A stretch of 64,000 nucleotides of DNA from an uncultured Candidatus Saccharibacteria bacterium (GCA_964367745.1 CAYIYK010000001.1:28142-92141), one strand, 5' to 3'. Counted from the first letter of the stretch, positions 9,778 to 51,944 are shown. The notes: generated by a model not told the origin, from the sequence alone. Made by a program: numbers and translations.

Positions 9778-11523
9778 ATGAATTATACATACAAAAGAAC
9801 TATAGCTTTTTTTGTTCAATTTCTAAAACCATATAAATGGATAGTGATTTTGTCTTTCCTGCTTTCATTTGTTGCATCAATATCAACTCTTTACAATGCA
9901 TTCGCTCTATCTCAGATTATTGATTTTGTATTTAAATATAGTAAAGGGGATTCACTGTCAGAAATATATTCTATAATTTATGTATGGTTATTGGTAATAA
10001 TTATCAGGTATGCAAGTATTTTTTACTCCCGTTCATCAGCAGTATTTATTGCAGAAAGGGCAGCAATAGATACTGAAATTTTTTCAGTAAATCATATTGC
10101 AAAAATTGATATTTCTTGGCATGAAAAAGAAAATAGTGGAAATAAAATAAAAAGAATTGAGCGTGCTTCAAGAAGTATTGTGGAAATGGTAAGACTCTGG
10201 AGAGGGACAGTTGTTGATATTATAGTAAATTTTTTAGGTATAGTTTTTATCATCTATCAATTTGATAGCATGCTAGTTTTGTTTATAGTAGTTTACCAAG
10301 TGATTTACTATTTCATAGCCAGTGCAACTAGAGAAAGAGGTATTAAGGCCATGCTTGAGGCAAATATAAAGGACGAAGTTATAACTGGTTTTTGGTACGA
10401 AATTGCTTCAAATATTAGAAGTATAAAAGTATTAGGGATGGCGGCAAAAATAATTGAGTATGCCAGAGACAAGTCCGAAGAATATTTAATTGATGTTAAA
10501 AGAAGAATTTTCTGGTTTCAATTGGGAGGAGTATCCGAAGGAACATTTGAAGCATTTACAAGAATCTTTTTTATAATTTATATTATTTGGGGAATAACTG
10601 AAGGGCGATACGAGCCGGGTTTTTTGGTTTTATTTTATTCGTATTTTAATACACTTAGCAATTCTGTCGGTCAATTATCAGATGTGGCTCAAGATACCGC
10701 AACTGCAAAGTCTAATATCGGTAGATTAACAGAGATTTTGGATGAACCAATTCTAATTGATGATGAAAAAAATAAAGTAGATTTTCCTAGTAATTGGAAC
10801 AGTGTTAAGATTAAAAATCTTTCTTTTGAATATGGTAAAAGCAAAGTACTTAATAATATAAATATTGAAATTAAGAAGGGTGAAAAGCTGGGTATTGTGG
10901 GTCTTTCTGGTGCTGGTAAATCAACGCTTTTCAAATTACTTTTGAAAGAATATGAAAACTATGAAGGTAATATAATGATCGGAGACACTTCACTAAAAGA
11001 TATTAATAAAAAAAGTTACGTTCAACATATTGCTGCGGTTTTACAGGAGACAGAGGTATTTAATATGAGTTTGCATAAAAATATTACTATTGCGAATAGT
11101 GATCAAATGGAAAATAAGAATCTGTTTGAAAGGTCATTAGATATTGCACATATTAAGGACTTTTTAAGCAAATTGCCTTCTGGTGAAGAAACATTGATTG
11201 GTGAAAAAGGTATTAAATTATCAGGTGGAGAGAGACAGAGATTGGGTATTGCCAGAGCAGTATTTAAGAACCCAGAAATTCTTTTCTTAGACGAAGCAAC
11301 TTCACATTTGGATGTCGAATCTGAGAGAAAAATTCAAGATACCTTAAAAATATTTTTTAAGGATGTCACCGCGGTTGTTATCGCTCATAGATTGTCAACT
11401 ATAAGGGAAATGGATAGGATTATTGTACTTGAAAATGGTCAAATAATTGAAGAGGGAACATTCGATGAACTACACTCTAAAGAAAGTAGATTTAAAGAGT
11501 TTTGGGATAAACAAAAAATATAA
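9778..11523 (+). CDS. ABC exporter, fused permease and ATPase
   Basis: N-terminal six-TM domain. Walker A GLSGAGKST, signature LSGGERQRLGIARA, Walker B ILFLDEATSHLD. Confidence 0.8.
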   Translation: MNYTYKRTIAFFVQFLKPYKWIVILSFLLSFVASISTLYNAFALSQIIDFVFKYSKGDSLSEIYSIIYVWLLVIIIRYASIFYSRSSAVFIAERAAIDTEIFSVNHIAKIDISWHEKENSGNKIKRIERASRSIVEMVRLWRGTVVDIIVNFLGIVFIIYQFDSMLVLFIVVYQVIYYFIASATRERGIKAMLEANIKDEVITGFWYEIASNIRSIKVLGMAAKIIEYARDKSEEYLIDVKRRIFWFQLGGVSEGTFEAFTRIFFIIYIIWGITEGRYEPGFLVLFYSYFNTLSNSVGQLSDVAQDTATAKSNIGRLTEILDEPILIDDEKNKVDFPSNWNSVKIKNLSFEYGKSKVLNNINIEIKKGEKLGIVGLSGAGKSTLFKLLLKEYENYEGNIMIGDTSLKDINKKSYVQHIAAVLQETEVFNMSLHKNITIANSDQMENKNLFERSLDIAHIKDFLSKLPSGEETLIGEKGIKLSGGERQRLGIARAVFKNPEILFLDEATSHLDVESERKIQDTLKIFFKDVTAVVIAHRLSTIREMDRIIVLENGQIIEEGTFDELHSKESRFKEFWDKQKI

Positions 11524-11738: not shown

Positions 11739-12836
11739 ATGTCACTTTCAATTGGTATCGTAGGCTTACCCAACGTTGGTAAATCAACACTTTTCAACGC
11801 TCTTACAAAAAAGAGTGTTCTTGTTGCAAACTATCCTTTCGCAACGATTGATCCTTCAGTTGGCGTTGTTGCTGTTCCTGATGAAAGACTTTGGAAACTC
11901 TCAGAATTCTCAAAGACTCAAAAGACTGTTCCTGCAGTTGTTGAATTCGTAGATATCGCTGGATTGGTAAAGGGGGCTTCAGACGGTGAAGGATTGGGAA
12001 ATCAATTCCTTACAAATATTCGTGAGACTGATGCAATAGCAGAAGTTGTTCGTATTTTTGAAGATGACAATATCATCCACGTAGATGGGAAAATAAATCC
12101 AGTTAAAGATATAGAAGTAATAAATCTTGAATTGATACTTGCTGATCTTCAAACAGTTACAAAAAGACTTTCAAACCTTACAAGAGAAGTAAAAACAGGA
12201 AAAAAAGAAGCGATTCTAGAAAATAGTTTGGTAGAGAAAATAAAGATAGCACTTGATGCCGGCAAGCTAGCTTCAACAGTAGTTCCAGACGAATTCGAAA
12301 GACCATTCCTAAAGTCACTTCACCTTTTGACCTCAAAACCTTTTATGTATATTTTGAATAAAAAAGCGGGAGGTAAAAATCTAGATGAAATAAAAGATGC
12401 AAGATGGGATGCTTTGATAAAATTCCTAAATGAAAGTAATTCTAAATGGGTAATAGTTGATGCTGGTATAGAACATGAATTAAAGGATATAGATGATAAA
12501 GATAAAAAAGAATTGAGAGAGGGACTTGGAGCAAGTGACGATGGTATAGATGATCTTATAAAAAAAGGATATGAGCTTTTGAATCTAATAACATATTTTA
12601 CAACTGGAGAAAAAGAAACTCGAGCTTGGACTATAGGGCGAGGTTGGACAGCACCAAAGGCTGGAACTGCTATACATGGAGATTTCGAAGAGAAGTTTAT
12701 ACGAGCTGAAGTAATAGAGTGGGATAAATTGATAGAGTCAGGATCATTTGGAAATGCTAGAGAAAAGGGATTGTTAAGAACAGAAGGGAAAGAGTATATA
12801 GTAAAAGATGGGGATGTAATGGAGTTTAAGGTCTAA
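11739..12836 (+). CDS. ychF: ribosome-binding ATPase YchF (Obg-family GTPase)
   Basis: G1 motif GIVGLPNVGKSTLFNALT. C-terminal TGS-like region. Ends DGDVMEFKV*, where the canonical YchF ending is ...DGDVMHFRFNV. Confidence 0.9.
   Translation: MSLSIGIVGLPNVGKSTLFNALTKKSVLVANYPFATIDPSVGVVAVPDERLWKLSEFSKTQKTVPAVVEFVDIAGLVKGASDGEGLGNQFLTNIRETDAIAEVVRIFEDDNIIHVDGKINPVKDIEVINLELILADLQTVTKRLSNLTREVKTGKKEAILENSLVEKIKIALDAGKLASTVVPDEFERPFLKSLHLLTSKPFMYILNKKAGGKNLDEIKDARWDALIKFLNESNSKWVIVDAGIEHELKDIDDKDKKELREGLGASDDGIDDLIKKGYELLNLITYFTTGEKETRAWTIGRGWTAPKAGTAIHGDFEEKFIRAEVIEWDKLIESGSFGNAREKGLLRTEGKEYIVKDGDVMEFKV
12807..12836 (+). repeat. R0: native 3' end of ychF (gatggggatgtaatggagtttaaggtctaa), the prototype of the cassette-boundary repeat
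   Basis: Seen directly. Seven further degenerate direct copies lie downstream. Confidence 0.8.
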
Positions 12837-12890
12837 GTGAAAGTGCCGCCCGATTTTCATCGAACGGCACTTGATTAGACCCTTGACGGG

Positions 12891-13124
12891 TCACTGAGTG
12901 ATCATGAGTTTCAGCAGATTCTTCACTGCAACAGTTCGATTCCTTTTGCTTTTGCTTCCGTGCGCCCGTTTGACATTGCGCACGGCGGCAGCCAATTGGA
13001 AATCTTGCTTTTTGCAGAGCTGATCTTGAAGCTCTTCACATACTGACAGGATGTTAGACATAATGTGCTTTCTGTTGAAGTTAAAACTGAGGCAAAAGTA
13101 ACACATGTGCATGATACCTGTCAA
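12891..13124 (-). CDS. cassette A: hypothetical small protein in a GC-rich segment
   Basis: ORF track. The surrounding 12840-13130 contains several GC hairpins (gtgccg...cggcac and ccgtgcgc...gcgcacgg). Confidence 0.3.
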   Translation of the reverse strand: MTGIMHMCYFCLSFNFNRKHIMSNILSVCEELQDQLCKKQDFQLAAAVRNVKRAHGSKSKRNRTVAVKNLLKLMITQ

Positions 13125-13135
13125 GTATACAAAGA

Positions 13136-13162
13136 CAGCGGTGTTACAGAGTTTAAGATCTA
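13136..13162 (+). repeat. R1: agcggtgttacagagtttaagatctaa
   Basis: Degenerate copy of R0. Confidence 0.6.
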
Positions 13163-13202
13163 ACTATTTACATATAAATTATTTCGTTGTATAGTAGCCA
13201 TA

Positions 13203-13613
13203 GTGAGTAGCTGGTTGTATGGAGGGACACCGGTGTCTCAAACAATATACCAAAATAAAAATTGTATGTATGTATTAGTTTGTGTGCAGTTATCTTCAGG
13301 GAAGAGTGGATACAAAAGCAAAGGTGACGCCATCCCTTGTTTTTCTAGAAACCAGGATCCGCTTGAATCTGCAAAAATGGCAATAGTTCATTTGCTTAAA
13401 CCTGGACCAGATGAAAAAGTTGAACTTGAATATCTGGGTCAATTACAAAGTGATGGTAAAACGTATGCTCTTGTTGTGGACAATAATGATCCGGCTGACT
13501 GGGTGGTCTACGTTAAAGAAATCCTCCCAAATGATGAAGTCGTGGATCTTCGTCATCATTACTCAGGCACATGGACTCATTTCTATTTCAAGAGTATTTG
13601 CCGTAAGCTCTAG
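13203..13613 (+). CDS. cassette B: hypothetical protein
   Basis: ORF track. The true start may be the internal Met (MAIVHLLKPG...). Confidence 0.3.
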   Translation: MSSWLYGGTPVSQTIYQNKNCMYVLVCVQLSSGKSGYKSKGDAIPCFSRNQDPLESAKMAIVHLLKPGPDEKVELEYLGQLQSDGKTYALVVDNNDPADWVVYVKEILPNDEVVDLRHHYSGTWTHFYFKSICRKL

Positions 13614-13673
13614 ACCTACACTTCGACACAGGAACCCCTTTCGCAAGATGTGGGTTTTTCTTTTTATAAAATA

Positions 13674-13700
13674 GAGGATGTGATGGAGTTTAGGATTTAG
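13674..13700 (+). repeat. R2: gaggatgtgatggagtttaggatttag
   Basis: Near-exact copy of the ychF tail. Confidence 0.75.
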
Positions 13701-13708
13701 ACATCTCG

Positions 13709-14131
13709 TTGTATAATATATTTAATATGAAATCACAAAAAATATTAATTGCTGTTTTGTTAGTAATTATAATTGTGCTATCAGTAATATTATATAGATC
13801 AACTCCTAATATCTCAGAAAAAGATTTTGTAGAAGTAATCGCTAAAGGAATTGTTGTAGACAACAATCTAGAAAATCCTGAGATTGGATCATATATACAT
13901 TTAAAGCAACAGACTACAAATGATGACCTATTCGTTATTTACAAGCCATTTCTTAATGGTAAACAAGTGGATTGTTTAAATCCAATTGATGTAAGTAGTA
14001 TATCTGTAAAACCAAGTACTGTAGTAGAAGTTAAAGGAAAGTATCTAAGTAAGGTTAATGGACAACCTCCAACTAATCTCATGATTTCTGCTTGTGAGTC
14101 ACCAACTTCTTATATAAAGGTTATAAAATAA
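13709..14131 (+). CDS. cassette C: small membrane-anchored extracytoplasmic protein
   Basis: N-terminal TM anchor KILIAVLLVIIIVLSVILY followed by a soluble ~110-aa domain. A TATAAT-like hexamer at 13713-13718 suggests the real start is Met 13727. Confidence 0.4.
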   Translation: MYNIFNMKSQKILIAVLLVIIIVLSVILYRSTPNISEKDFVEVIAKGIVVDNNLENPEIGSYIHLKQQTTNDDLFVIYKPFLNGKQVDCLNPIDVSSISVKPSTVVEVKGKYLSKVNGQPPTNLMISACESPTSYIKVIK

Positions 14132-14146
14132 GTTTATTAAAAAAAT

Positions 14147-14173
14147 GATGCTGTCATGAAGTTTAAGATTTAG
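14147..14173 (+). repeat. R3: gatgctgtcatgaagtttaagatttag
   Basis: Degenerate copy. Ends 5 nt before the start of cassette D. Confidence 0.65.
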
Positions 14174-14178
14174 GAATT

Positions 14179-14571
14179 ATGATTAAAAGAATTCTAATTG
14201 TTACAGGAATAACCCTGGCCTTGATTGTCTTAGGGATAAGCTTGTTAATATATCTGTTCGGAAAATCTATGTGTGGTGATGATCAGTTTGTGAAATATCT
14301 GTCTCCTAACGAAAAACATGAGATTGTAAAGTATCGAAGTAATTGTGGAGCTATGACAACATATGTCTATAATGTGGAACTAGATGGAAAAACCATTCTT
14401 CGTTATACGTATGGAGAACCAGTTTTAGTTAAATGGATAGATGATAAAAAAGTTTCTATCGAAATGGCTTCAAGTTCACCATACATGAAGACATATAAAA
14501 TCCTAGAAAACTATAAAAATGTTCAAATAAATTTTGATCAGGATATCAAAAATAGTTACAGAGTAAACTAA
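14179..14571 (+). CDS. cassette D: small membrane-anchored extracytoplasmic protein
   Basis: N-terminal TM anchor ILIVTGITLALIVLGISLLIYLF. Cys-containing soluble domain. Confidence 0.45.
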   Translation: MIKRILIVTGITLALIVLGISLLIYLFGKSMCGDDQFVKYLSPNEKHEIVKYRSNCGAMTTYVYNVELDGKTILRYTYGEPVLVKWIDDKKVSIEMASSSPYMKTYKILENYKNVQINFDQDIKNSYRVN

Positions 14572-14580
14572 TTAGAAAAT

Positions 14581-14608
14581 AGCGGTGTTATAAAGTTTAG
14601 AGTGCTAA
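14581..14608 (+). repeat. R4: agcggtgttataaagtttagagtgctaa
   Basis: Degenerate copy. It shares its 5' part agcggtgtta with R1. Confidence 0.55.
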
Positions 14609-14685
14609 TTCACTATTTAGAAGTTGACATGTTATATATTAACTTATATAGTTTAAAATAGTAAACTTAGACGAATGATCTTGTT

Positions 14686-14913
14686 ATGCAAAATTTGAAA
14701 AAAGGGGATGTAATTAAGTGTAGTTTTAACGGTTACGAATTTCAAGTATCCGAAGTGGTGCGCCATCCAAAATACGACAATGACGGAGTCCCAAGCAGTG
14801 TTCGTGGTCATTACGTGGGTGGTGGTGCTAGTGGCTCGGATCTTCTTTATTTCGGTGGCAAGCATCCTCCATATAATTGGCGAGATTGGAGTGTCATTAA
14901 ACAAACTGCGTAG
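14686..14913 (+). CDS. cassette E: hypothetical small protein (75 aa)
   Basis: ORF track. Confidence 0.3.
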   Translation: MQNLKKGDVIKCSFNGYEFQVSEVVRHPKYDNDGVPSSVRGHYVGGGASGSDLLYFGGKHPPYNWRDWSVIKQTA

Positions 14914-14953
14914 TTTACATCTAAATAGGATTTCAAAAAAGAAAGGAACACAG

Positions 14954-15151
14954 ATGAATACATTACTTAAGGAATTCTACAATGCAAGTACTAATGAACA
15001 GGATCAGGCAAAGAAAATTCTTTTTACAGTATTTTTTGATCTGATTGCACGTGTTGGTTTTGTAGAATTCTGGAACTCGTGTGATGAAAACAGTAAAAAT
15101 GAAATTCTCCAGAAAAATTTGGAGAAAATTCGCGCACTGGCACAATCTTAA
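14954..15151 (+). CDS. cassette E: hypothetical small protein (about 65 aa)
   Basis: Internal Met of ORF 14780-15151. Followed by a strong terminator. Confidence 0.3.
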   Translation: MNTLLKEFYNASTNEQDQAKKILFTVFFDLIARVGFVEFWNSCDENSKNEILQKNLEKIRALAQS

Positions 15152-15200
15152 CCCATCATCTCAACACGGAAAATTCACGTCGCGAGATGGTGGGTTTTCT
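15151..15200 (+). terminator. rho-independent terminator
   Basis: acccatcatctc-N17-gagatggtgggt followed by tttct. Confidence 0.6.
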
Positions 15201-15208
15201 GTTGGGAA

Positions 15209-15238
15209 GATGGTGGTGCGGTGGAGTTTAGGATTTAG
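15209..15238 (+). repeat. R5: gatggtggtgcggtggagtttaggatttag
   Basis: Degenerate copy. Translates DGGAVEFRI*. Confidence 0.7.
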
Positions 15239-15240
15239 GT

Positions 15241-15456
15241 AAAAAATAGCCCCGTCTGGACGTGTTCTGGCTAGGCCAGGGTACCAAACGGGGGTTGCAA
15301 CCATGACACACGCTTGACTACTGAGTCAGCTTTCGGCGAACCGAGAAGAACTACATGTGTCTACGTTTTATTTGCAACGAGGCCTGCATCGTGAGGCGTC
15401 TCCCGAATAAAATATAGCACTCCAGAACATGGTTGTCTAATTAGGTAATCTAAAGA
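15241..15456 (+). other. cassette F: GC-rich non-coding segment with multiple short hairpins; possibly a structured RNA or a decayed cassette
   Basis: No ORF of 60 aa or more. Hairpins include ccccgt...acgggg, ctggc-tag-gccag and tgact-actg-agtca. Confidence 0.3.
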
Positions 15457-15486
15457 GATGCGGGTTACAGAGTTTTGTCTCAATAA
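15457..15486 (+). repeat. R6: gatgcgggttacagagttttgtctcaataa (most degenerate copy)
   Basis: Retains gttacagagttt and the spacing to a stop codon. Confidence 0.4.
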
Positions 15487-15562
15487 ATTAATAAATATGA
15501 ATTTATGACGGTGGCAAAAAAGCTTTATATGTAGGCTATTTTCGTGGTATATTATTTATAAT

Positions 15563-16531
15563 ATGGAGCTGACTCGCAGATTTACCCAATTAAATAGACA
15601 TAATTCAGACATTGCTGGAGGTAAGGGTGCTTCGCTTGGTGAAATGACACAGGCGGGTATTTCAGTTCCTCCTGGTTTTGTGGTCCTTGCAGAATCCTTT
15701 GAGCAATTTATTAAGAAGACCGATCTTGTTCAGGAAATAGATGCTATCTTACATAAGGTTAAACATAACGAAATCCATACTGTTGAAGCGGCGTCAGAGA
15801 AAATTCGTGAACTTATTTTGAATGCAGAAATGCCTACGCATATTGCTGAGGATATTTTAAGACAATTTAAAGAATTAAATAATAAGTATGTCGCCGTTAG
15901 GTCTTCCGCCACCGCCGAAGACGGCATGGATCATGCATGGGCCGGACAACTTGAGTCATATTTAAACACTACAGAAGAAGATGTTCTCACAAAGGTAAAA
16001 CTTTGTTGGTCATCTTTATTTACTCCCCGTGCAATTTTCTATCGTTTTGAAAAGAGTCTTCATTCAACAAAAATATCAGTGGCCGTTGTGGTACAAAAAA
16101 TGGTTGAATCAGAGGTCTCGGGTATTGCATTTTCAGTGCATCCAGTCACAGAAGATTACAACCAGCTTATTATTGAGGCAGGATTCGGTCTTGGTGAGGC
16201 TATTGTTTCAGGATCAGTCACTCCTGATTCGTATGTAGTCGAAAAAGATCCGAGAAATATCTTGGATATTAATATTTCGACACAAGATCGAGCTTTGTAC
16301 CGATCAGAAAAAGCTTCTATAGAGCATGGAAATAACGAATGGAAAACTATTCCTGAGCCAAAAGCATCATCTCAAGTGCTTACGGAAAAGCAAATCTTGG
16401 AACTTTCAGAAATTATTCTTAAAATTGAAGATCATTATGTTTTTCCATGTGACATTGAATGGGCTTTCGAAGAAGGAAAGTTCTACATCGTTCAATCAAG
16501 ACCAATTACAACACTTTCAAAAAACAGATAA
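15563..16531 (+). CDS. PEP-utilising-enzyme N-terminal nucleotide-binding (PPDK_N, ATP-grasp-like) domain protein; the N-terminal half of an RPH/PEP-synthase-like phosphotransferase
   Basis: GGKGASLGEM, FVVLAESFEQF and AVRSSATAEDG, and it ends IVQSRPITTL. This is the classic PpsA/PPDK/rifampin-phosphotransferase ATP-binding domain, and it stops at the domain boundary. Confidence 0.7.
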   Translation: MELTRRFTQLNRHNSDIAGGKGASLGEMTQAGISVPPGFVVLAESFEQFIKKTDLVQEIDAILHKVKHNEIHTVEAASEKIRELILNAEMPTHIAEDILRQFKELNNKYVAVRSSATAEDGMDHAWAGQLESYLNTTEEDVLTKVKLCWSSLFTPRAIFYRFEKSLHSTKISVAVVVQKMVESEVSGIAFSVHPVTEDYNQLIIEAGFGLGEAIVSGSVTPDSYVVEKDPRNILDINISTQDRALYRSEKASIEHGNNEWKTIPEPKASSQVLTEKQILELSEIILKIEDHYVFPCDIEWAFEEGKFYIVQSRPITTLSKNR

Positions 16532-16570
16532 TAAAGGAATAATCAAGATTCTTAAATAAAAAAAAAGAAC

Positions 16571-16600
16571 CCAGAGCAGCAAGTGCACTGGGTTCGTCGA
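16571..16600. terminator. bidirectional terminator between convergent genes
   Basis: aaaaaaaaagaaccca-N15-tgggttcg. It reads as a T-run on the minus strand. Confidence 0.45.
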
Positions 16601-16602
16601 TA

Positions 16603-17202
16603 TTACTTGGGAGGGAGCAAAGTGTCCACACCAAGCAACTGGTTATTTCCGTCGAAACGGAACCGGTAGATTCCCGCTTTTGGAAGCGTCTGCTTCCGAG
16701 GCGGAAACGATGTGTCTAGCAATCCTCGCAGAATACCGAGAAGGGGTTGATGACTCACAAACAGAGCTGACTGACCGAGCTGAATCTTATTCAGAATCTC
16801 GGTAGCCGTCTTTTGAATGTGGGCACCTTCCCGTTCGCAGAAATCTGGAATGAAAGCTTCAACTTGGTCCAAGTCTTGAGGATGACGCTCTGGTTCGAGT
16901 GCCTGATAGACGTCGTCGAGCTCTTTTTCAAGGAGCGGAGCTAGTCCGGTGAGCACTTCCCATGATCCATTCGGAACCGCAATTTCTGCAGTCTCCCGCG
17001 CCCGCACAAATGGCGAGTGGGCGAGATATGCAAATTCGGTATCTGTCAGATGGGTAGCACGGACTATCTCAATCTCCTCTCGGCCTTGCGGATAGAGGGG
17101 AGACCGGGATTGCCACATTCCATGAACTCGGATGTCTTCCTCGAGCTGGTTGTTGCCGTGGCGCATTGCCCACAGCCACTTTTCATCAGTTGGCGTTTTC
17201 AA
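16603..17202 (-). CDS. histidine-phosphatase superfamily protein (PGAM/SixA-like), in a GC-rich gene (about 50% GC by eye)
   Basis: RHG catalytic motif LWAMRHGNN. The second motif is SPFVRARETA. The composition contrasts sharply with its neighbours. Confidence 0.7.
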   Translation of the reverse strand: MKTPTDEKWLWAMRHGNNQLEEDIRVHGMWQSRSPLYPQGREEIEIVRATHLTDTEFAYLAHSPFVRARETAEIAVPNGSWEVLTGLAPLLEKELDDVYQALEPERHPQDLDQVEAFIPDFCEREGAHIQKTATEILNKIQLGQSALFVSHQPLLGILRGLLDTSFPPRKQTLPKAGIYRFRFDGNNQLLGVDTLLPPK

Positions 17203-17296
17203 TCCACACCTCCATATTTATTAGTTTTATGATATACTGCTGTCAAAGAGACCTTGAGCAATTATATCACATTAGACGGCTTACGTCAATAATTTT

Positions 17297-18832
17297 ATGA
17301 CACCAAAAACCCAATCAAAATTACCTAGAATAATGTATGATCAAACACAGTTCACATCGTTGTGGATGATTGATAAGAATGGTTTGTGGCTCTGTGATAA
17401 GGCGTATCACGATATGAGGAAAATTTCAGGGTATACTCCTTCTGAATGGATTATTTATACTCAAAACAAACCTGTCTCGTTTTGGTTTGGTGCATATGAC
17501 GAAGAAGCAATCAATGAAGAAGCAAGGGTAGGATTTGATAATTTTACAGATAAGGAATTTCTAGATAAATTTGAGTCCGCAATAAATAAATCTTACGAAG
17601 AAACGAAGGCGCTCAAAGATATATTTTTCAGTAAGTTTTACAAGAAAGAAAAAGAGGCGCTTGAAAAAGAACCTATTGAGGTTGCTAATTTTATACAAAG
17701 AATCCATGACATGTCAGCATTTACAATGTCATATTATTTTCTCACACAGCCTCAAAGATTTTATAAATTTGAAGAAGAAATAAAGCAATATCTCCCTAAC
17801 AAAGAACTTGAGCATGTATCAACTAATGGTCGCTATCTTACATATATTTCTCAAATTCAAAAGTTTATTACTGATCTGGCTTCTTCAATTAAAGAAAAGA
17901 ATAAAACCTTCAATAATTTTATTACTGAAAACCCAGAATGGTCTACAAAGATTGATGACATTGTTAAGAACATCGGATTTTTGAATTGGGGTTTGTTGGG
18001 AGGTGAGTTGGCTGATAGAACCTATATCGAAAAAGCCGTAGAGGAATTGCTTAATGATGACGCTAAACTTGTTGAAGAAAAAAGAAAAACTTTTGAACTG
18101 ATTACTCATACAGATGAAAGAAATAGAATAGTGGCTAATGATAAAAGTAGAGCGGTGCAAGTTGCAGATATAATGGGTCATTCATCAGTAATGAGATTTG
18201 ATCTCCAAACATTCATGCTTTGTACTATTAACTATGCAAATATCTTTATCAAAGCAGCCCAGGAAAAATATAAGCTAACTAATGATCAACTCGCGTCGTA
18301 TTTTTATGATGAAGTCGTTTCTTTGGTGAAAGAAGGTAAGCTAGTGGATTCAGAAATATTAGATCAAAGACAGAAAGGTTTCTTAAAGATTCACAAAGGC
18401 ACAACTGTTGACAGCTATATCGCAGAAAAAGCTCACAACGAAATAAAGGATTTGCTCGAGTTTAGACTCAGTGAGATTAATTCCACAAAGGAAGTTAGGG
18501 GTACCGTCGCTTCATGGCCAGACAAAGGGACTGAAAAAATATCTGCAAGAGCCTTTGTTCTTACAACAGCTTTTGATATTGAAGAAGAACTGAGGAAATT
18601 TAAGCCAGGGGATATCTTAGTTGCTACTCAGACTCATCCTAATCTTGTACCTCAAATGAAAAGCGCTGTTGCTGTTGTAACTGACGAAGGTGGGATTACC
18701 TGTCACGCAGCAATTGTTTCTCGTGAGCTTCGAAAACCTTGTATTATAGGCACAAAACTTTCTACAAAAATATTTAAGACAGGTGATATGTTAGATCTTG
18801 ATTTAAAATTAGGTACTGTAAAAAAAGTTTAG
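17297..18832 (+). CDS. PEP-utilising-enzyme mobile (phosphohistidine swivel) domain protein with a ~400-aa unknown N-terminal region; the C-terminal half of an RPH-like phosphotransferase
   Basis: C-terminal GGITCHAAIVSRELRKPCIIG matches the catalytic-His motif GGxTSHAAIxAREL. The domain order ATP-grasp | middle | His is that of rifampin phosphotransferase rather than PpsA. Confidence 0.65.
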   Translation: MTPKTQSKLPRIMYDQTQFTSLWMIDKNGLWLCDKAYHDMRKISGYTPSEWIIYTQNKPVSFWFGAYDEEAINEEARVGFDNFTDKEFLDKFESAINKSYEETKALKDIFFSKFYKKEKEALEKEPIEVANFIQRIHDMSAFTMSYYFLTQPQRFYKFEEEIKQYLPNKELEHVSTNGRYLTYISQIQKFITDLASSIKEKNKTFNNFITENPEWSTKIDDIVKNIGFLNWGLLGGELADRTYIEKAVEELLNDDAKLVEEKRKTFELITHTDERNRIVANDKSRAVQVADIMGHSSVMRFDLQTFMLCTINYANIFIKAAQEKYKLTNDQLASYFYDEVVSLVKEGKLVDSEILDQRQKGFLKIHKGTTVDSYIAEKAHNEIKDLLEFRLSEINSTKEVRGTVASWPDKGTEKISARAFVLTTAFDIEEELRKFKPGDILVATQTHPNLVPQMKSAVAVVTDEGGITCHAAIVSRELRKPCIIGTKLSTKIFKTGDMLDLDLKLGTVKKV

Positions 18833-18870
18833 AATATTAAAACTTGTCTTGAGATGATGGTTTTTAATTA

Positions 18871-18900
18871 GATGGGGATGTGATGGAGTTTAGGATTTAA
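18871..18900 (+). repeat. R7: gatggggatgtgatggagtttaggatttaa (27/30 identical to the native ychF end)
   Basis: Translates DGDVMEFRI*. It is the distal boundary of the array. Confidence 0.8.
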
Positions 18901-18957
18901 ACAAAAGAAAACTCGCCATCCGAAGATAGAGAGTAGTCTGTTTAGTTGGTGAGTAGT

Positions 18958-19110
18958 TACTTCTTGCGGGGCTCCTTGGGCCACACGATCTCAATAGCAC
19001 CGAGGAAGATAAGTGCGAATAGACAGTATGGGTTTTTGGTCAAATAAACCGCATACCCGACTGCTGCACTGACACCCAACGCAATACATGATGCAGGTAC
19101 ATATTTCATG
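18958..19110 (-). CDS. small hydrophobic protein (about 50 aa) in a GC-rich block
   Basis: Hand translation of the minus strand gives MKYVPASCIALGVSAAVGYAVYLTKNPYCLFALIFLGAIEIVWPKEPRKK. It is below the 60-aa cutoff of the ORF track. Confidence 0.3.
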
Positions 19111-19293
19111 ACTAAGTACTTTCGTTTGTTGTGAAAACTTACCTAAAAATTATCATAGCATAATTAAATTATTATGTCGAATCTGAGATAATGTTCGCAT
19201 TGCCTCAAGTCATTGACACTATCACATATATGTGCTAGTGTTTTTGTGGATTAGTCGAACAAATTGACAACTCCATACGAAAGGAAAACTTAA

Positions 19294-20247
19294 ATGACCG
19301 CTTCAAACATTACCGAAATGGGCATCGTACAGATGCTCGCCACAGTTCTTGGTGGTGAAATCTCCGAAGATTCTGGTCCGTCCGAACGGATCAAGAGCAA
19401 GGAGAAGCAGAGGGGTGTCATCACCTCACCTGCTTCACGTAGGCTCTACACCGCAAACTCGATTATGTCCGAACATATCGGAGACCTCGTAAACGAGCAC
19501 AACCGCCTCCACGAGAATGAAGAGAAGCCTGAGAATCACGACTGCGAGGCATTCAGGGCGAAAATTTCGCGCCTGGGTGCTCGGAGGGATTTGCTCCACA
19601 GTCTTCTCTGGCAAGCAATCACCGAGGAACACCCTCAGGTTGTCGCAAACAATGCGAGTATCCGAAAAGGATGGCTCCTAGTGGATAATGATGGGGAGTG
19701 GAACGAAATCATTACCGTATCTGACAAGGCAAGTATCGCTAACAATTTCATCAGCCGTGTAACCGCAATCGTCTGCGGAAAGCGTCTGGCGGTGATGGAA
19801 GAAGAACTTGATCTCGTTGGAATTGGTGAGGAAGTAATTGGCTCGCTCAACGACGAACGTATCCAGACCCTTAGATCGCTTACTTCAGAAGTTCACAAGG
19901 AGCTGTCAAAACAGCTTTCTGCGGACGTCATGGACGCCGGTAGTAATGTTATCGGGAATATGACTGTAAATGAGGTGAGCCGTCTGATCGCACAGGCGAT
20001 ACATCTCAAGAAACTGTCTGACCTTACATCCTCCTTGTTCTGGTGCGGTGTTCGTGATGCTGTTCCAGCAGCAGCGGATCTTCCGAATATTGGTATTCGG
20101 CGGGCGTGGGATGTCGTCAAATGTGTTCATGATGAGGACGAAGACGGCATCAAGATGGTGATGACCCCGACGGGTCCCATAATTGAGATGAAAGTCCCTA
20201 TCCCAAGAGGTTTGCTCATGTCCTTATTGGGACGTGGTGGACGCTAA
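19294..20247 (+). CDS. hypothetical protein, GC-rich ORFan (317 aa)
   Basis: ORF track. No recognisable motif. Composition is about 50% GC. Confidence 0.4.
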   Translation: MTASNITEMGIVQMLATVLGGEISEDSGPSERIKSKEKQRGVITSPASRRLYTANSIMSEHIGDLVNEHNRLHENEEKPENHDCEAFRAKISRLGARRDLLHSLLWQAITEEHPQVVANNASIRKGWLLVDNDGEWNEIITVSDKASIANNFISRVTAIVCGKRLAVMEEELDLVGIGEEVIGSLNDERIQTLRSLTSEVHKELSKQLSADVMDAGSNVIGNMTVNEVSRLIAQAIHLKKLSDLTSSLFWCGVRDAVPAAADLPNIGIRRAWDVVKCVHDEDEDGIKMVMTPTGPIIEMKVPIPRGLLMSLLGRGGR

Positions 20248-20283
20248 TCCAATCGACGCCTGACCGCCCCCACAACCTCACAA

Positions 20284-20320
20284 GCCGGTAACTCTCACAC
20301 AGAGTTGCCGGTTTTCTTTT
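20284..20320 (+). terminator. rho-independent terminator
   Basis: gccggtaactct-cacac-agagttgccgg followed by ttttctttt. Confidence 0.55.
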
Positions 20321-20585
20321 ATCTTCCAAAAACACCTGATTTATGGTAATATGATAGGGAATGAAAAGAAGCTCCTTTCACTACGAGACGAGTCATGGTG
20401 GACACAATGATTCAGGTAATGCTTGGAAAAACATTGGCAAAATAACCGTAGTACTTTTGGTTATTTGGGCTATTCAAATTTTCTTTGTTAACTTCCCCCC
20501 ATGGTTCAATCAACAATGAACCTCCTCCTCTACGAAAACCCCGGTACTTCACAGTATCGGGATTTTGTTATATCATACAAGGACT

Positions 20586-22886
20586 ATGAGCTCTTACGAC
20601 CATACAAAAATTGAAAAGAAGTGGCAGAAAATATGGGAATCAAAAAAACCAAATAAAGTAAAAGAAGATTTAAAAAAGAAAAAGTTTTTTGCATTGATAG
20701 AATTCCCATATCCATCAGGAGCAGGGATGCACGTTGGTCATATAAGAAGTAATACAGCAATGGATATAATCTCTCGAAAGAGAAGAAGAGAGGGTTATAA
20801 CGTTCTATATCCAATAGGTTGGGATGCTTTCGGTCTTCCTGCAGAAAACTATGCAATTAAAACTGGTATACATCCGTCTATAATAACAAAACAGAATACA
20901 GATACGTTTAGAAGACAATTAAAAGCTTTAGGTTTTTCTTTTGATTGGTCAAGAGAAATAGATACAACAGATCCAAAATACTATAAATGGACTCAATGGA
21001 TTTTTTTACAATTCCTTAAAAAAGGTTTGGCATATAAAAACAGGATGACGATAAATTGGTGCCCAAAGGATCTTATAGGTCTTGCGAATGAAGAAGTGAT
21101 AGACGGATGTTGTGAACGTTGTGGTACAAAAGTAGAAAAAAGAGAAAAAGAACAGTGGATGTTGGCTATAACAAAGTATGCAGAAAGATTAGACAAAGAT
21201 CTAGATGAAACAGATTTTCAAGAGAGAATAAAGATTCAACAAAGGAATTGGATTGGGAAAAGTGAAGGTGCTGAAATTGATTTTAAAATAAATAATTCAG
21301 ATAAAAATATAAAGGTATTTACAACAAGACCAGATACGCTTTTTGGTGTAACTTATCTAGTGCTTGCGCCAGAACATAGTTTGGTAAAAGAATTGATTTC
21401 TGATGTTTCAAATAAAGATGAAATAAATGCATATATAAAACAAGTAAAAGAAAAAACAGATATAGAAAGAACAGATGCGAAATCAGAGAAAACTGGCGTA
21501 CAGTTAAAAGGAATTAGTGTTGTAAACCCTGCAAACAATGAGGAAGTACCCCTATGGATCGCTGATTATGTATTAGCAGATTATGGAACAGGGGCTGTTA
21601 TGGCAGTGCCAGCACATGATGAGAGAGATAGACAATTCTCAGAAAAATACAATCTTCCGATAAAAGAAACAATTCTACATGATAAAAAAGAAATAATTGA
21701 AAAATACGGTAAATCAATAACCAAATTCAAACTTCGCGACTGGGTATTCTCTCGACAAAGATATTGGGGAGAGCCAATACCAGTTATACATTGTGAAAAA
21801 TGTGGAATGGTTCCTGTACCAGAAAAAGACTTACCAGTAAAACTTCCAAAAGTTGAAAACTATAAACCAACAGAGACCGGTGAATCTCCACTCGCTTCAA
21901 TTGATAAATGGGTAAATACAAAATGTCCAAACTGCAAAGGTAAAGCAAAAAGGGAAACAGATACAATGCCAAACTGGGCGGGAAGTAGTTGGTACTATTT
22001 AAGATATACAGATCCAAAAAATAAAAAGGCTTTCGCTAGTGAAAAGAATTTAAAATATTGGACTCCAGTAGATTGGTATAACGGTGGAATGGAACATACC
22101 ACTTTACACTTATTGTATTCAAGATTCTGGCATAAATTCCTTTTTGATCTAGGCTTGGTCCCAACTACTGAGCCATACAAAAAGAGAACATCACACGGTT
22201 TGATACTAGCAGAAGGTGGAGCGAAGATGTCAAAGTCAGTCGGAAATGTAGTAAATCCTGATGATATAGTAAAAGTTGTAGGAGCAGATACACTAAGAGT
22301 TCACGAAATGTTCATGGGTCCATTTGATCAAGCGATAGCGTGGGACACAAACTCAATAGCAGGATCAAGAAGATTCATAGAAAGAGTTTGGAAACTAAAT
22401 GAAAAGATTGGATTACAATCAAGTGGAGAAATAGAGGTAAGTGTTCACAAAACGATAAAGAAAGTTAGCGAAGATATCGAAGAGATGAGGTTCAATACAG
22501 CGATAAGTTCAATAATGATTCTATTGAATGATTTTGAAAAAGAAGGAAGTATATTGAAAGAACATTACAATATCTTGATACAACTTTTGGCACCATTTGC
22601 ACCGCATGTCACAGAAGAACTATGGGTTATGATGAAGAATAAAGGCTCTGTACATGCCTCAGAATGGCCCAAATTTGACCCAAGTAAGCTAATAGAAAGT
22701 AATGTCACGATAACTATACAAGTTAATGGAAAAGTGCGAGGTACGATGAAAGCAAAGATTGATACTCCAGATATAGAAATAGAAAAAACGGCTCTAAATA
22801 TGGATGAAATAAAGAAATGGACACTTGGAAATGTTCCAAAAAAGGTGATAGTAATCAAAAATAGGCTTATCAACATAGTGGTGTAA
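20586..22886 (+). CDS. leuS: leucyl-tRNA synthetase (short form)
   Basis: HVGH (HIGH-class) motif, KMSKS and the editing-domain region. The internal Met MSSYDHTKIEKKWQKIW is the likely start. Confidence 0.9.
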   Translation: MSSYDHTKIEKKWQKIWESKKPNKVKEDLKKKKFFALIEFPYPSGAGMHVGHIRSNTAMDIISRKRRREGYNVLYPIGWDAFGLPAENYAIKTGIHPSIITKQNTDTFRRQLKALGFSFDWSREIDTTDPKYYKWTQWIFLQFLKKGLAYKNRMTINWCPKDLIGLANEEVIDGCCERCGTKVEKREKEQWMLAITKYAERLDKDLDETDFQERIKIQQRNWIGKSEGAEIDFKINNSDKNIKVFTTRPDTLFGVTYLVLAPEHSLVKELISDVSNKDEINAYIKQVKEKTDIERTDAKSEKTGVQLKGISVVNPANNEEVPLWIADYVLADYGTGAVMAVPAHDERDRQFSEKYNLPIKETILHDKKEIIEKYGKSITKFKLRDWVFSRQRYWGEPIPVIHCEKCGMVPVPEKDLPVKLPKVENYKPTETGESPLASIDKWVNTKCPNCKGKAKRETDTMPNWAGSSWYYLRYTDPKNKKAFASEKNLKYWTPVDWYNGGMEHTTLHLLYSRFWHKFLFDLGLVPTTEPYKKRTSHGLILAEGGAKMSKSVGNVVNPDDIVKVVGADTLRVHEMFMGPFDQAIAWDTNSIAGSRRFIERVWKLNEKIGLQSSGEIEVSVHKTIKKVSEDIEEMRFNTAISSIMILLNDFEKEGSILKEHYNILIQLLAPFAPHVTEELWVMMKNKGSVHASEWPKFDPSKLIESNVTITIQVNGKVRGTMKAKIDTPDIEIEKTALNMDEIKKWTLGNVPKKVIVIKNRLINIVV

Positions 22887-50921: not shown

Positions 50922-51944
50922 ATGACAAATACAAATATCATTAAGAATGAGGATGGTAAACTTGTAATATATACAAGTGCAAGTGGAGCGGTGGAGTTAA
51001 GGGCAGATACGGATAGTGAAACTATCTGGGCTACGCAAGCCCAGATTGCGGAATTGTTTGAAACTACCGTACAAAATATAATTTTACATTTAAAAAATAT
51101 ATATAATGAAAAAGAGCTAGAGAAAAAAGCAACTTGTAAGGAATTCTTACAAGTTCAAATTGAAGGAAGTCGCTCTGTTAAGCGCTCAATTGAATTTTAC
51201 AATTTAGATGCAATAATTGCAGTGGGCTATAGAGTCAACTCTAAAAAAGCTACACAATTCCGTATCTGGGCTACAACTACTCTCCGCGAATACCTAATCA
51301 AAGGTATCGTTGTTAATAATGAAAGAGTGTCAAAGCTTCCAGACAAAATATTAAAAGATCTTGAAGAAAAGATTTCTCTAATTCAAAGAACGGTAAGAGA
51401 AAGACAATTAGATCAAGGAGAAACTAATAGTCTATTGTCAGTTATCCATGACTATGCGAACTCTTGGAAATTTCTTAAGGAATACGATGAAGGAGAATTG
51501 AAGCTTAAGAAAAGTAAAGAAATTGAAAAGAGAAAGTTTGATTATGAATTTATTCGAGGATCTATTGATGTTTTAAAAGAAATGTTAATAGATAAAAGGG
51601 AAGCAACAGATTTGTTTGGTTCAGAAAGAGATGGAAGCTTCCAAGGTATATTGAAAACTATATATCAAACATTTGATAGTAAAGAACTGTACTCTAGTCT
51701 TGATGAAAAGGCATCACATTTACTTTATTTTATTATAAAGGACCATCCATTTTCTGACGGGAATAAGCGTATTGGATCATTCGTTTTTATTTATTTCTTA
51801 AGATTAAATAAAATTGATATTAGATCAAATGGTGAAAAGAAAATAAATGACAATACTCTCGTTGCCATCGCTCTACTTATAGCTGAAAGTGATCCGAAGG
51901 ATAAAGATTTAATGGTTGCTTTGGTTACTAACCTGTTGTCATAA
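50922..51944 (+). CDS. RhuM-family protein with a C-terminal Doc/Fic-like domain
   Basis: The N-terminal AELFETTVQNI...FYNLDAIIAVGYRVNSKKATQFRIWAT is RhuM-like. The C-terminal HPFSDGNKRIGSF matches the Doc motif HxFx(D/N)GNKR. Confidence 0.6.
   Translation: MTNTNIIKNEDGKLVIYTSASGAVELRADTDSETIWATQAQIAELFETTVQNIILHLKNIYNEKELEKKATCKEFLQVQIEGSRSVKRSIEFYNLDAIIAVGYRVNSKKATQFRIWATTTLREYLIKGIVVNNERVSKLPDKILKDLEEKISLIQRTVRERQLDQGETNSLLSVIHDYANSWKFLKEYDEGELKLKKSKEIEKRKFDYEFIRGSIDVLKEMLIDKREATDLFGSERDGSFQGILKTIYQTFDSKELYSSLDEKASHLLYFIIKDHPFSDGNKRIGSFVFIYFLRLNKIDIRSNGEKKINDNTLVAIALLIAESDPKDKDLMVALVTNLLS

Follow-up and report, generated by a model that had tools for sequence, protein, structure and literature searches.

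A tandem array of attachment-site copies and small integrase-less modules at the 3' end of ychF in an uncultured patescibacterium, with a phage-borne Xer-like integrase as its probable source

Conserved genes can accumulate integrative elements in tandem at their 3' ends, reportedly so in Streptococcus thermophilus, where ICESt1 and ICESt3 use a tyrosine integrase to enter the 3' end of fda, as Pavlovic and colleagues are said to have described in 2004. Integrase-less, attachment (att) site-flanked cis-mobilisable elements (CIMEs) at fda are likewise said to be mobilised by a neighbour. In Dehalococcoides, islands stand in tandem 3' of one single-copy essential gene, ssrA, with direct repeats of the gene's 3' end; their number and content vary between strains, and members without an integration module have been proposed to be mobilisable in cis via accretion (McMurdie et al. 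2011, PMC3146451). The tycheposon islands of Prochlorococcus, a streamlined host, form the main store of flexible genes, with partial tRNA copies parting the elements and newcomers pushing older ones inward (bioRxiv 10.1101/2020.12.28.424599). Here, we analyse the ychF locus of an uncultured Candidatus Saccharibacteria bacterium in a 64-kb stretch of DNA (CAYIYK010000001.1:28142-92141), from now on referred to as the window, whose coordinates are counted from its first letter. The locus is a tandem att-site island at the 3' end of a conserved gene, with CIME-like members, and is neither an integron nor a dif/Xer system. We consider it very probable that the repeats found there are att copies, that the last 33 bp of ychF are the attB-type target of a phage- or element-borne Xer-like tyrosine integrase and that modules have been stacked at this site in tandem.

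The locus has the hallmarks of a tandem island, namely direct repeats downstream of an intact target gene and variable content between conserved flanks; a cognate recombinase with the same site (attP) occurs in related contigs and not in the window. Compared with the ychF array, the fda elements reportedly have a conjugative carrier rather than a phage, occur as one or two rather than up to seven, and are said to be much larger. The Dehalococcoides ssrA islands depend on a CcrB-like serine recombinase and a tmRNA gene as target, whereas the ychF array involves a phage Xer-like tyrosine recombinase and the in-frame end of a protein gene. Size differs too: the ssrA islands, usually equipped with an integration module of their own, range from kilobases to tens of kilobases, in contrast to ychF modules with a median of ~320 nt. 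Tycheposons target tRNA genes and bring their own tyrosine recombinase and replication genes, neither of which kind is found in ychF modules. New here are the host phylum, ychF as the target, a phage Xer-like integrase with a 15-10-15 dyad site and tiny integrase-less modules, including small-RNA ones. A limited literature search found no paper describing the ychF locus and, for ychF as an att site, only an unrelated pneumococcal prophage 5' of ychF; a paper on horizontal transfer in Patescibacteria mentions neither ychF nor an integrase (PMC12455944). The first-pass annotation of this DNA had known of no described system that matches, a view which has to be withdrawn, as tandem 3'-end accretion including integrase-less members is documented (PMC3146451; bioRxiv 10.1101/2020.12.28.424599).

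Copies of the ychF end were identified by scanning the window with the degenerate site pattern GATGTRATGGAGTTTARGRTYTAR, allowing up to 3 mismatches. Five matches were obtained, all on the + strand and ending at 12836, 13700, 14173, 15238 and 18900, while shuffles gave 0. Scoring with a 33-nt weight matrix, for which the training set consisted of sites from other loci only, places six positions including the native end at 20 to 46 bits, whereas none of 30 Markov-randomised versions of the window exceeded 8.2 bits, so that the copies align above chance as had been proposed (Table 1). Seven further copies (R1 to R7) had been claimed downstream of the native end (R0). Five of them lie far above chance, one (R4) is degenerate and one (R6) is doubtful, all being located on the + strand 3' of ychF. 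R4 has GGTGTTAYARAGTTT in common with R1 (0.08 matches expected) and sits at a module border, and we read it as a degenerate copy that would carry a 1-nt indel. A better candidate than R6 for the end of module 6 is a copy at 15424-15447, found by alignment, that has lost its centre (~10 nt). The native site R0 combines a native-type left arm, GATGGGGATGTAATG, with the spacer GAGTTTAAGG and is without a right arm (3/15). Successive copies are spaced by 327, 537, 473, 436, 629, 250 and 3412 nt, in line with the intervals first described (250-3400 bp). Reading frame and stop codon (TAG, TAA or TGA) are preserved in every copy, as in native ends, which supports the earlier suggestion that each could once have been the gene end; each has served, or is built to serve, in this role. 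The variation of the stop codon among copies, as among native ends, fits right halves having served in this way.

The identity of the target gene is clear (NCBIfam TIGR00092, 433 bits at a cut-off of 279), and its closest relatives are Patescibacteria of the Paceibacteria/Parcubacteria type with 58-92% identity. In this clade the YchF C-terminus ordinarily reads DGDV(M/I)EFK(I/V) before the stop. EFKI or EFKV is therefore the normal end, the comparison with ...HFRFNV does not apply, and the idea that the terminus had been remodelled can be dropped.

Related Paceibacteria carry 0 to 5 or more unrelated mini-modules between conserved ychF and leuS, so that the predicted variability of module number and content between conserved flanks is directly seen. 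Synteny of the two genes was found in L001, L002, L005-L007, L009 and L013 and in many metagenome contigs. The interval measures 0.47 kb in L006, which has no module, 0.55 kb in L090, 0.6 kb in L007, 1.25 kb in L001, 1.95 kb in L002 and 2-2.6 kb in L005, L009 and L013, compared to 7.7 kb in the window (leuS starting at 20565), where patches of 40-54% GC stand out from a genome of ~32%. The window interval matches those of relatives solely in short pieces beside att copies, even where YchF is ~90% identical. Downstream + strand copies of the tail are present in L001, L002, L004, L005, L009, L013 and L026. When both strands of 25 related ychF loci and the window were scanned, all strong copies were on the + strand and 3' of ychF, with none on the minus strand, L090/L120 being the exception. 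A metagenome scan with the non-native site variant yielded 41 contigs, mostly with ychF, then 1 to 5 modules, then leuS. Several contigs break right after ychF because of the hotspot there, and the sole other contig with an identical YchF breaks within module 2. The 79 modules counted across loci have a median length of 323 nt (range 73-3415 nt), and 50 of 82 inter-repeat segments were singletons in DNA-level clustering.

The copies themselves form a defined site family. The 73 distinct non-native copies share a sharp-edged block of 33 nt, gAAGATGGTrGTGynATAGAGTTTAAGATTTAG, whose left part, GGTrGTGynATA, differs consistently from the native tail GGnGATGTgATn. A native-type left part is found in a minority of distal copies, among them R2 and R7 in the window as well as the distal copy of L002. 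The latter duplicates the ychF end over 57 nt and has the ACAAAAGAAAACT flank in common with R7, the match between the two taking in R7 and 13 nt on its right. A TTGACA-like box begins at +5/+6 past the stop in 12 of 118 sites and within +16 in 15 (background 1.7%).

The same site adjoins an integrase gene elsewhere. In 9 metagenome contigs, a 305-aa open reading frame (ORF) lies ~380 nt 5' of a site copy on the same strand, and this arrangement also occurs in L122-L124, L139 and L143-L147. The encoded protein is a PF00589 tyrosine recombinase (E 1.5e-25) with the R..HxxR..Y pattern; its nearest solved structures are XerA and a XerC-like protein, it scores under the curated cut-offs of XerA, XerC, XerD, XerS and integron integrases, and its family has 354 matches across Patescibacteria. 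The reported lack of a recombinase is thus correct for the 64-kb window and not for related phage and element contigs, in which a cognate tyrosine integrase is found with an adjoining site. Where longer sequence exists, the integrase-plus-site module belongs to temperate tailed phages. In L122-L124, the far side of the site encodes a terminase large subunit, an O-like replication initiator, a DnaC-like loader, an exonuclease, a Sak4-like protein, RusA and methyltransferases, while L143-L145 carry PG_binding_1-domain genes just 5' of the integrase, which we take to be lysis genes. Among IMG/VR viral contigs, the site is present in L132 and L134, and integrase plus site in L139. A first viral scan with a site pattern ending in ATYTAR gave 0 matches because phage sites end in ATATAA; the revised pattern found L132 and L134. 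Its seven further matches lie inside unrelated genes and were discarded as chance. The integrase family is absent from the window and from the 20-kb ychF loci. More distant relatives of the integrase (57-59% identity; L125-L128) lie at the ends of other genomic islands (restriction-modification, Fic, relaxase), which have no detectable repeat in common. A dif-like palindrome (TTTTCAACAA..TTGTTGAGAA) 5' of the integrase-linked copy was rejected because it is unconserved among contigs.

In three of the five phage contigs the site is a dyad in which inverted arms of 15 nt flank a constant spacer of 10 nt, GAGTTTAAGA. L132 has the arms GATGGGGATGTTATG and TATAACAACCCCATC around GAGTTTAAGA (13/15 arm matches), L123 has GATGGTGGTGCGATA and TATAACACCACCGTC around GAGTTTAAGA (12/15) and L139 has GACGGCACCGCTATC and TATAACGGTCCCGTC around TAGTTTAAGA (12/15), the probability of at least 12 arm matches under the null being 1e-4. 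The arms vary between phages and are complementary within each, whereas the spacer is constant. The probable point of exchange can be read from natural recombinant junctions. L144 and L147 are 100% identical over 400 nt and 99.6% identical over 1300 nt on the 5' side up to GGAGTTTAA and unrelated beyond; L147 and L123 are 99.8% identical for 600 nt 3' of the site and unrelated 5' of it. These junctions break exactly in the spacer and probably locate strand exchange there.

Based on these data, we propose that the array grew by repeated integration, in support of the earlier suggestion of repeated site-specific integration at an att site overlapping a conserved gene end. The element-borne site would mimic the YchF tail, with a left arm ending in GAAGATGGTGGTGCGATA, the spacer GAGTTTAAGA and then a stop codon, and strands would be exchanged within the 10-bp spacer. 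With exchange at this point, YchF codons up to ...EF(K) would stay chromosomal and the last codon and stop would come with the arrival, leaving YchF intact and moving the previous end to the far side. Repeated arrivals would stack modules between ychF and leuS and shift older ones leuS-ward. Each module would be a small self-contained unit of promoter, one or few genes or a small RNA, terminator and its own 3' att copy. As the modules of the window are without an integrase, they would be movable only in trans, or in cis by an adjacent integrase-bearing element, or would now be fixed. Accretion-mobilisation may contribute, in that an integrase-bearing element could enter at one att copy and exit via another, taking or leaving modules. 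We infer that this integrase family built the window array and that the array grew from the ychF side; the arrangement of modules in relatives suggests that single modules may be independently mobile.

Several observations weigh against this account. All relatives compared are metagenome assemblies. The other two phage sites form weak dyads only (8/15 and 6/15), and chromosomal and array sites consist of left arm and spacer, with right-arm matches of 3-5/15, so that excision of a single module by recombination of two array sites may be inefficient. Searching all six frames of the 64-kb window with the integrase-family profile found none (best E 0.27). A prophage directly 3' of ychF was sought in 40 related loci with phage proteins, which gave housekeeping SSB matches only and no ychF-attL-prophage contig. 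Finally, ychF is bracketed by att copies in L090/L120, which accretion leaves unexplained. There, two att copies lie 5' of ychF, between G6PD and ychF (L120 5849-6165; L090, oriented, 994-1310), and none downstream.

A wider reading, which we put forward only tentatively, is that the ychF-leuS interval constitutes a phage-serviced, integron-like system. Temperate-phage integrases would, by pairing alternative att copies, capture mini-modules (protein genes or structured small RNAs, with promoter, terminator and a 33-bp 3' site of their own), reshuffle them and carry them between divergent hosts. That modules behave as units is part of the main account and is supported by several comparisons. 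A small-RNA module has different neighbours in each of 4 arrays, with homology beginning exactly at the att copy. In L086, a Nudix module is placed exactly between ychF and the module that lies directly 3' of ychF in L085; the module common to both is 86% identical compared with 70% for the ychF genes. Module ends resembling the segment 15146-15238 of module 5 (85-98% identity) are present in L005, L089, L103 and L116, whose ychF is only 65-74% identical and in which the module 5-like 3' block is joined to different ORFs.

It is rather unlikely, in our view, that the array is instead a pure fossil, in which modules never mobile alone are the attR-proximal leftovers of mostly deleted prophages and the locus is their graveyard. 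Some observations favour it. The module of L090/L120 matches the attP-adjacent gene in phage contigs L132 and L134 (17/19 aa, ~90% over 60 nt), which also speaks for a phage origin in the main account, and the non-coding stretch found after the integrase recurs at the end of the Fic module of L096. The missing right arms of array sites, the several degenerate copies in the window and the occurrence of tiny empty modules of 73-97 nt point the same way. However, tblastn of module ORFs against phage contigs detected phage-gene fragments in L090/L120 only, att copies bound modules precisely, promoters stand at a fixed offset, and a distinct consensus of the 33-nt block persists through 73 copies. 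The finding of one module between differing neighbours, and of modules more conserved than the core gene beside them (86% vs 70%, 91-98% vs 65-74%), also fits poorly with leftovers.

Elements exploiting the host Xer recombinases at the chromosome dimer-resolution site (integrative mobile elements exploiting Xer, IMEX, at dif) would equally stack integrase-less modules at a single site, and the best curated matches of the Xer-like integrase are XerA, XerC and XerD. These scores remain far under the respective cut-offs (124/220, 110/335 and 110/330), the integrase gene is phage-borne, the site lies within a coding region with a spacer of 10 bp, and the cumulative GC skew climbs steadily on either side without a sign change, hence without a terminus-like switch. 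We regard this explanation as very improbable.

Even less credit can be given to a true integron or an integrase-less integron array (cluster of attC sites lacking an integron integrase, CALIN), in which an IntI-type integrase acts on attC sites. The likeness, already remarked on in the first-pass annotation, is useful as an analogy: cassettes are small, mostly single-gene and highly diverse (50/82 singletons), each has a recombination site at its 3' end, and insertion appears proximal. It does not extend to the machinery. The integrase is phage-borne, does not adjoin the array in the window and is not IntI (54 bits vs a cut-off of 265 for TIGR02249, 29 vs 435 for NF011946). Likewise, the sites are 33-nt direct repeats without a second arm (arm match 3-5/15, with no inverted repeats tied to the copies), which sets them apart from folded attC hairpins, and modules bring promoters and terminators of their own, as opposed to promoterless cassettes read from Pc. 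The idea that nothing here is mobile and that local duplication, homologous recombination or a reused regulatory or terminator motif produced the repeats can practically be set aside, since the copies, although short, in frame and in some cases just 5' of the next gene's start, enclose unrelated content in close relatives with conserved flanks, adjoin an integrase in phages, break inside the spacer and show neither an Rfam match nor a common fold. A tRNA or tmRNA as the real target was likewise rejected, as neither the locus nor the integrase contigs contain one; the window's only tRNA lies at 1813-1886.

Gene acquisition in Patescibacteria is little known, their genomes being tiny and uncultured, and a hotspot defined by sequence offers a handle on their flexible genes. 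The match of attP and attB links uncultured phages, including IMG/VR contigs, to Paceibacteria by sequence and is evidence of lysogeny in the group. For organisms without genetics, the compact Xer-like integrase, its 40-bp dyad site and the conserved chromosomal target together make up a candidate integration tool. If single modules are mobile, they would represent an integron-independent evolutionary route to gene-cassette arrays, and if the interval is indeed phage-serviced, one locus would be the main flexible-gene store of these reduced genomes.

Table 1. Features of the ychF-leuS region of the window, with attachment-site copies, modules and flanking genes.
Feature	Position	Strand	Description
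ychF	11739-12836	+	Target gene, intact; 365 aa; ends DGDVMEFKV-stop, like relatives
R0	12804-12836	+	attB-type site, last 10 codons and stop of ychF; weight matrix 42 bits
Module 1	12837-13163	+	Minus-strand 77-aa ORF (12891-13124); ends in R1; GC 40-45% vs ~32% flanks
R1	13131-13163	+	Weight matrix 31 bits
Module 2	13164-13700	+	ORFan ending 13613; ends in R2; without Pfam match
R2	13668-13700	+	Native-type left arm; weight matrix 20 bits
Module 3	13701-14173	+	134-aa membrane-anchored ORF (13727-14131); ends in R3; without Pfam match
R3	14141-14173	+	Weight matrix 22 bits
Module 4	14174-14609	+	130-aa DUF5412-like ORF (14179-14571); ends in R4; Pfam PF17428, E 1.9e-5
R4	14575-14609	+	Degenerate; ungapped matrix -1.6 bits (fails)
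Module 5	14610-15238	+	Two small ORFs (14686-14913, 14954-15151) and conserved terminator block; ends in R5
R5	15206-15238	+	Element-type left arm GGTGGTGCG; weight matrix 46 bits
Module 6	15239-15447	-	Structured small RNA, ~170 nt; own att copy 15424-15447
R6	15455-15488	+	R6 of the first-pass annotation, doubtful; only GTTACAGAGTTT in common with R1; missed by weight matrix
Module 7	15489-18900	+	3.4 kb; PPDK_N, His_Phos_1 and PEP-utilizers (Pfam); ends in R7
PPDK_N ORF of module 7	15563-16531	+	Pfam
His_Phos_1 gene of module 7	16603-17202	-	GC-rich (52%); own TTGACG-17-TATAAT promoter
PEP-utilizers ORF of module 7	17297-18832	+	Pfam
R7	18868-18900	+	Native-type left arm; weight matrix 38 bits
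R7-to-leuS DNA	18901-20564	.	GC 46-54%; minus-strand 50-aa membrane ORF, 317-aa ORFan (19294-20247), 52-aa ORF
leuS	20565-22886	+	Conserved right flank of hotspot; synteny with ychF in relatives

The typical module runs from an att copy through a -35/-10 promoter, an ORF or RNA, a hairpin with T-run and GAAGAT to its own att copy. Promoters in the window are located at 13167-13195, 14624-14652 and 15524-15553 on the + strand and at 15439-15411 and 17289-17261 on the minus strand. Module 2 has its promoter (TTTACA-17-TATAGT, 13167-13195) directly after R1, module 5 uses TTGACA-17-TATAGT at 14624-14652, and module 6 has TAGACA-17-TATATT with the TG of an extended -10. Pfam searches of 9 ORFs inside the array and 30 window ORFs outside it returned housekeeping or cargo families only. 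A homologue of the module 1 ORF is encoded in the first module of both L089 and L118. In other loci, the cargo includes Fic (twice), an NTP_transf_6 nucleotidyltransferase, a Nudix protein and many ORFans. With R4 and the end of module 6 degenerate, partial decay of the array is evident.

Homologues of the module 6 RNA are found in L009 (12072-12265), L098 (404-600) and L100 (7675-7865). RNAalifold predicts 49 pairs, 11 of them with compensatory changes, from an alignment of only 4 sequences, and an Rfam scan of the region found no family for this RNA and nothing else of relevance. Its intrinsic terminator abuts the upstream att copy. A second non-coding module of 141 nt with a similar layout is located at 474-614 in L085, corresponding to 878-1019 in L086.

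Module 7 looks like a single rifampicin-phosphotransferase/PEP-synthase-like gene split at a domain border into the PPDK_N and PEP-utilizers ORFs; the His_Phos_1 gene sits between the two halves on the opposite strand. Beyond R7, neither Pfam nor any relative gave a match for the stretch 18901-20564, which also does not end in an att copy. This DNA is probably part of the variable region and may be an older, fixed insertion.

The gap between integrase and site contains a lysine/glycine-rich basic ORF (~45 aa), which has a promoter of its own, as well as a conserved non-coding stretch (~130 nt) that holds a 12-bp hairpin (GCTCGCCTACTA..TAGTAGACGGGC). This arrangement is seen in L099 (3150-3528), with equivalents in L082, L083, L088, L106, L107, L110, L116, L121 and L123. 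Rfam searches of the integrase loci, including the ~130-nt stretch, returned nothing relevant; the stretch might act as a regulatory RNA or provide accessory binding sites. Among L106, L082, L099, L121, L088 and L107, the integrase is 91-94% identical, while the adjacent 333-aa phosphoribosyltransferase-like gene is 43-63% identical. In these contigs, the integration module is either far more constrained than its neighbours or recently exchanged.

The flanking genes show further differences between the window and its relatives. An ABC transporter gene at 9778-11523, just 5' of ychF, is missing at that position in L001 and L002, indicating that the upstream side of ychF is variable too; in both loci the G6PD homologue is nearer to ychF than in the window. 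The leuS gene of L104 (3985-8013) is a single continuous ORF encoding 1355 aa with 3 in-frame inserts of ~180-200 aa, and leuS with inserts is also found in L089, L090, L091, L095, L105 and L108. Two of the inserts in relatives carry a Nudix box and one a HAD-like DxDG motif. Such insertions are odd for a tRNA synthetase, and the window LeuS (773 aa) is without any of them. A RhuM/Fic-domain protein is encoded at 50922-51944 of the window, Fic being also module cargo in L002 and L096.

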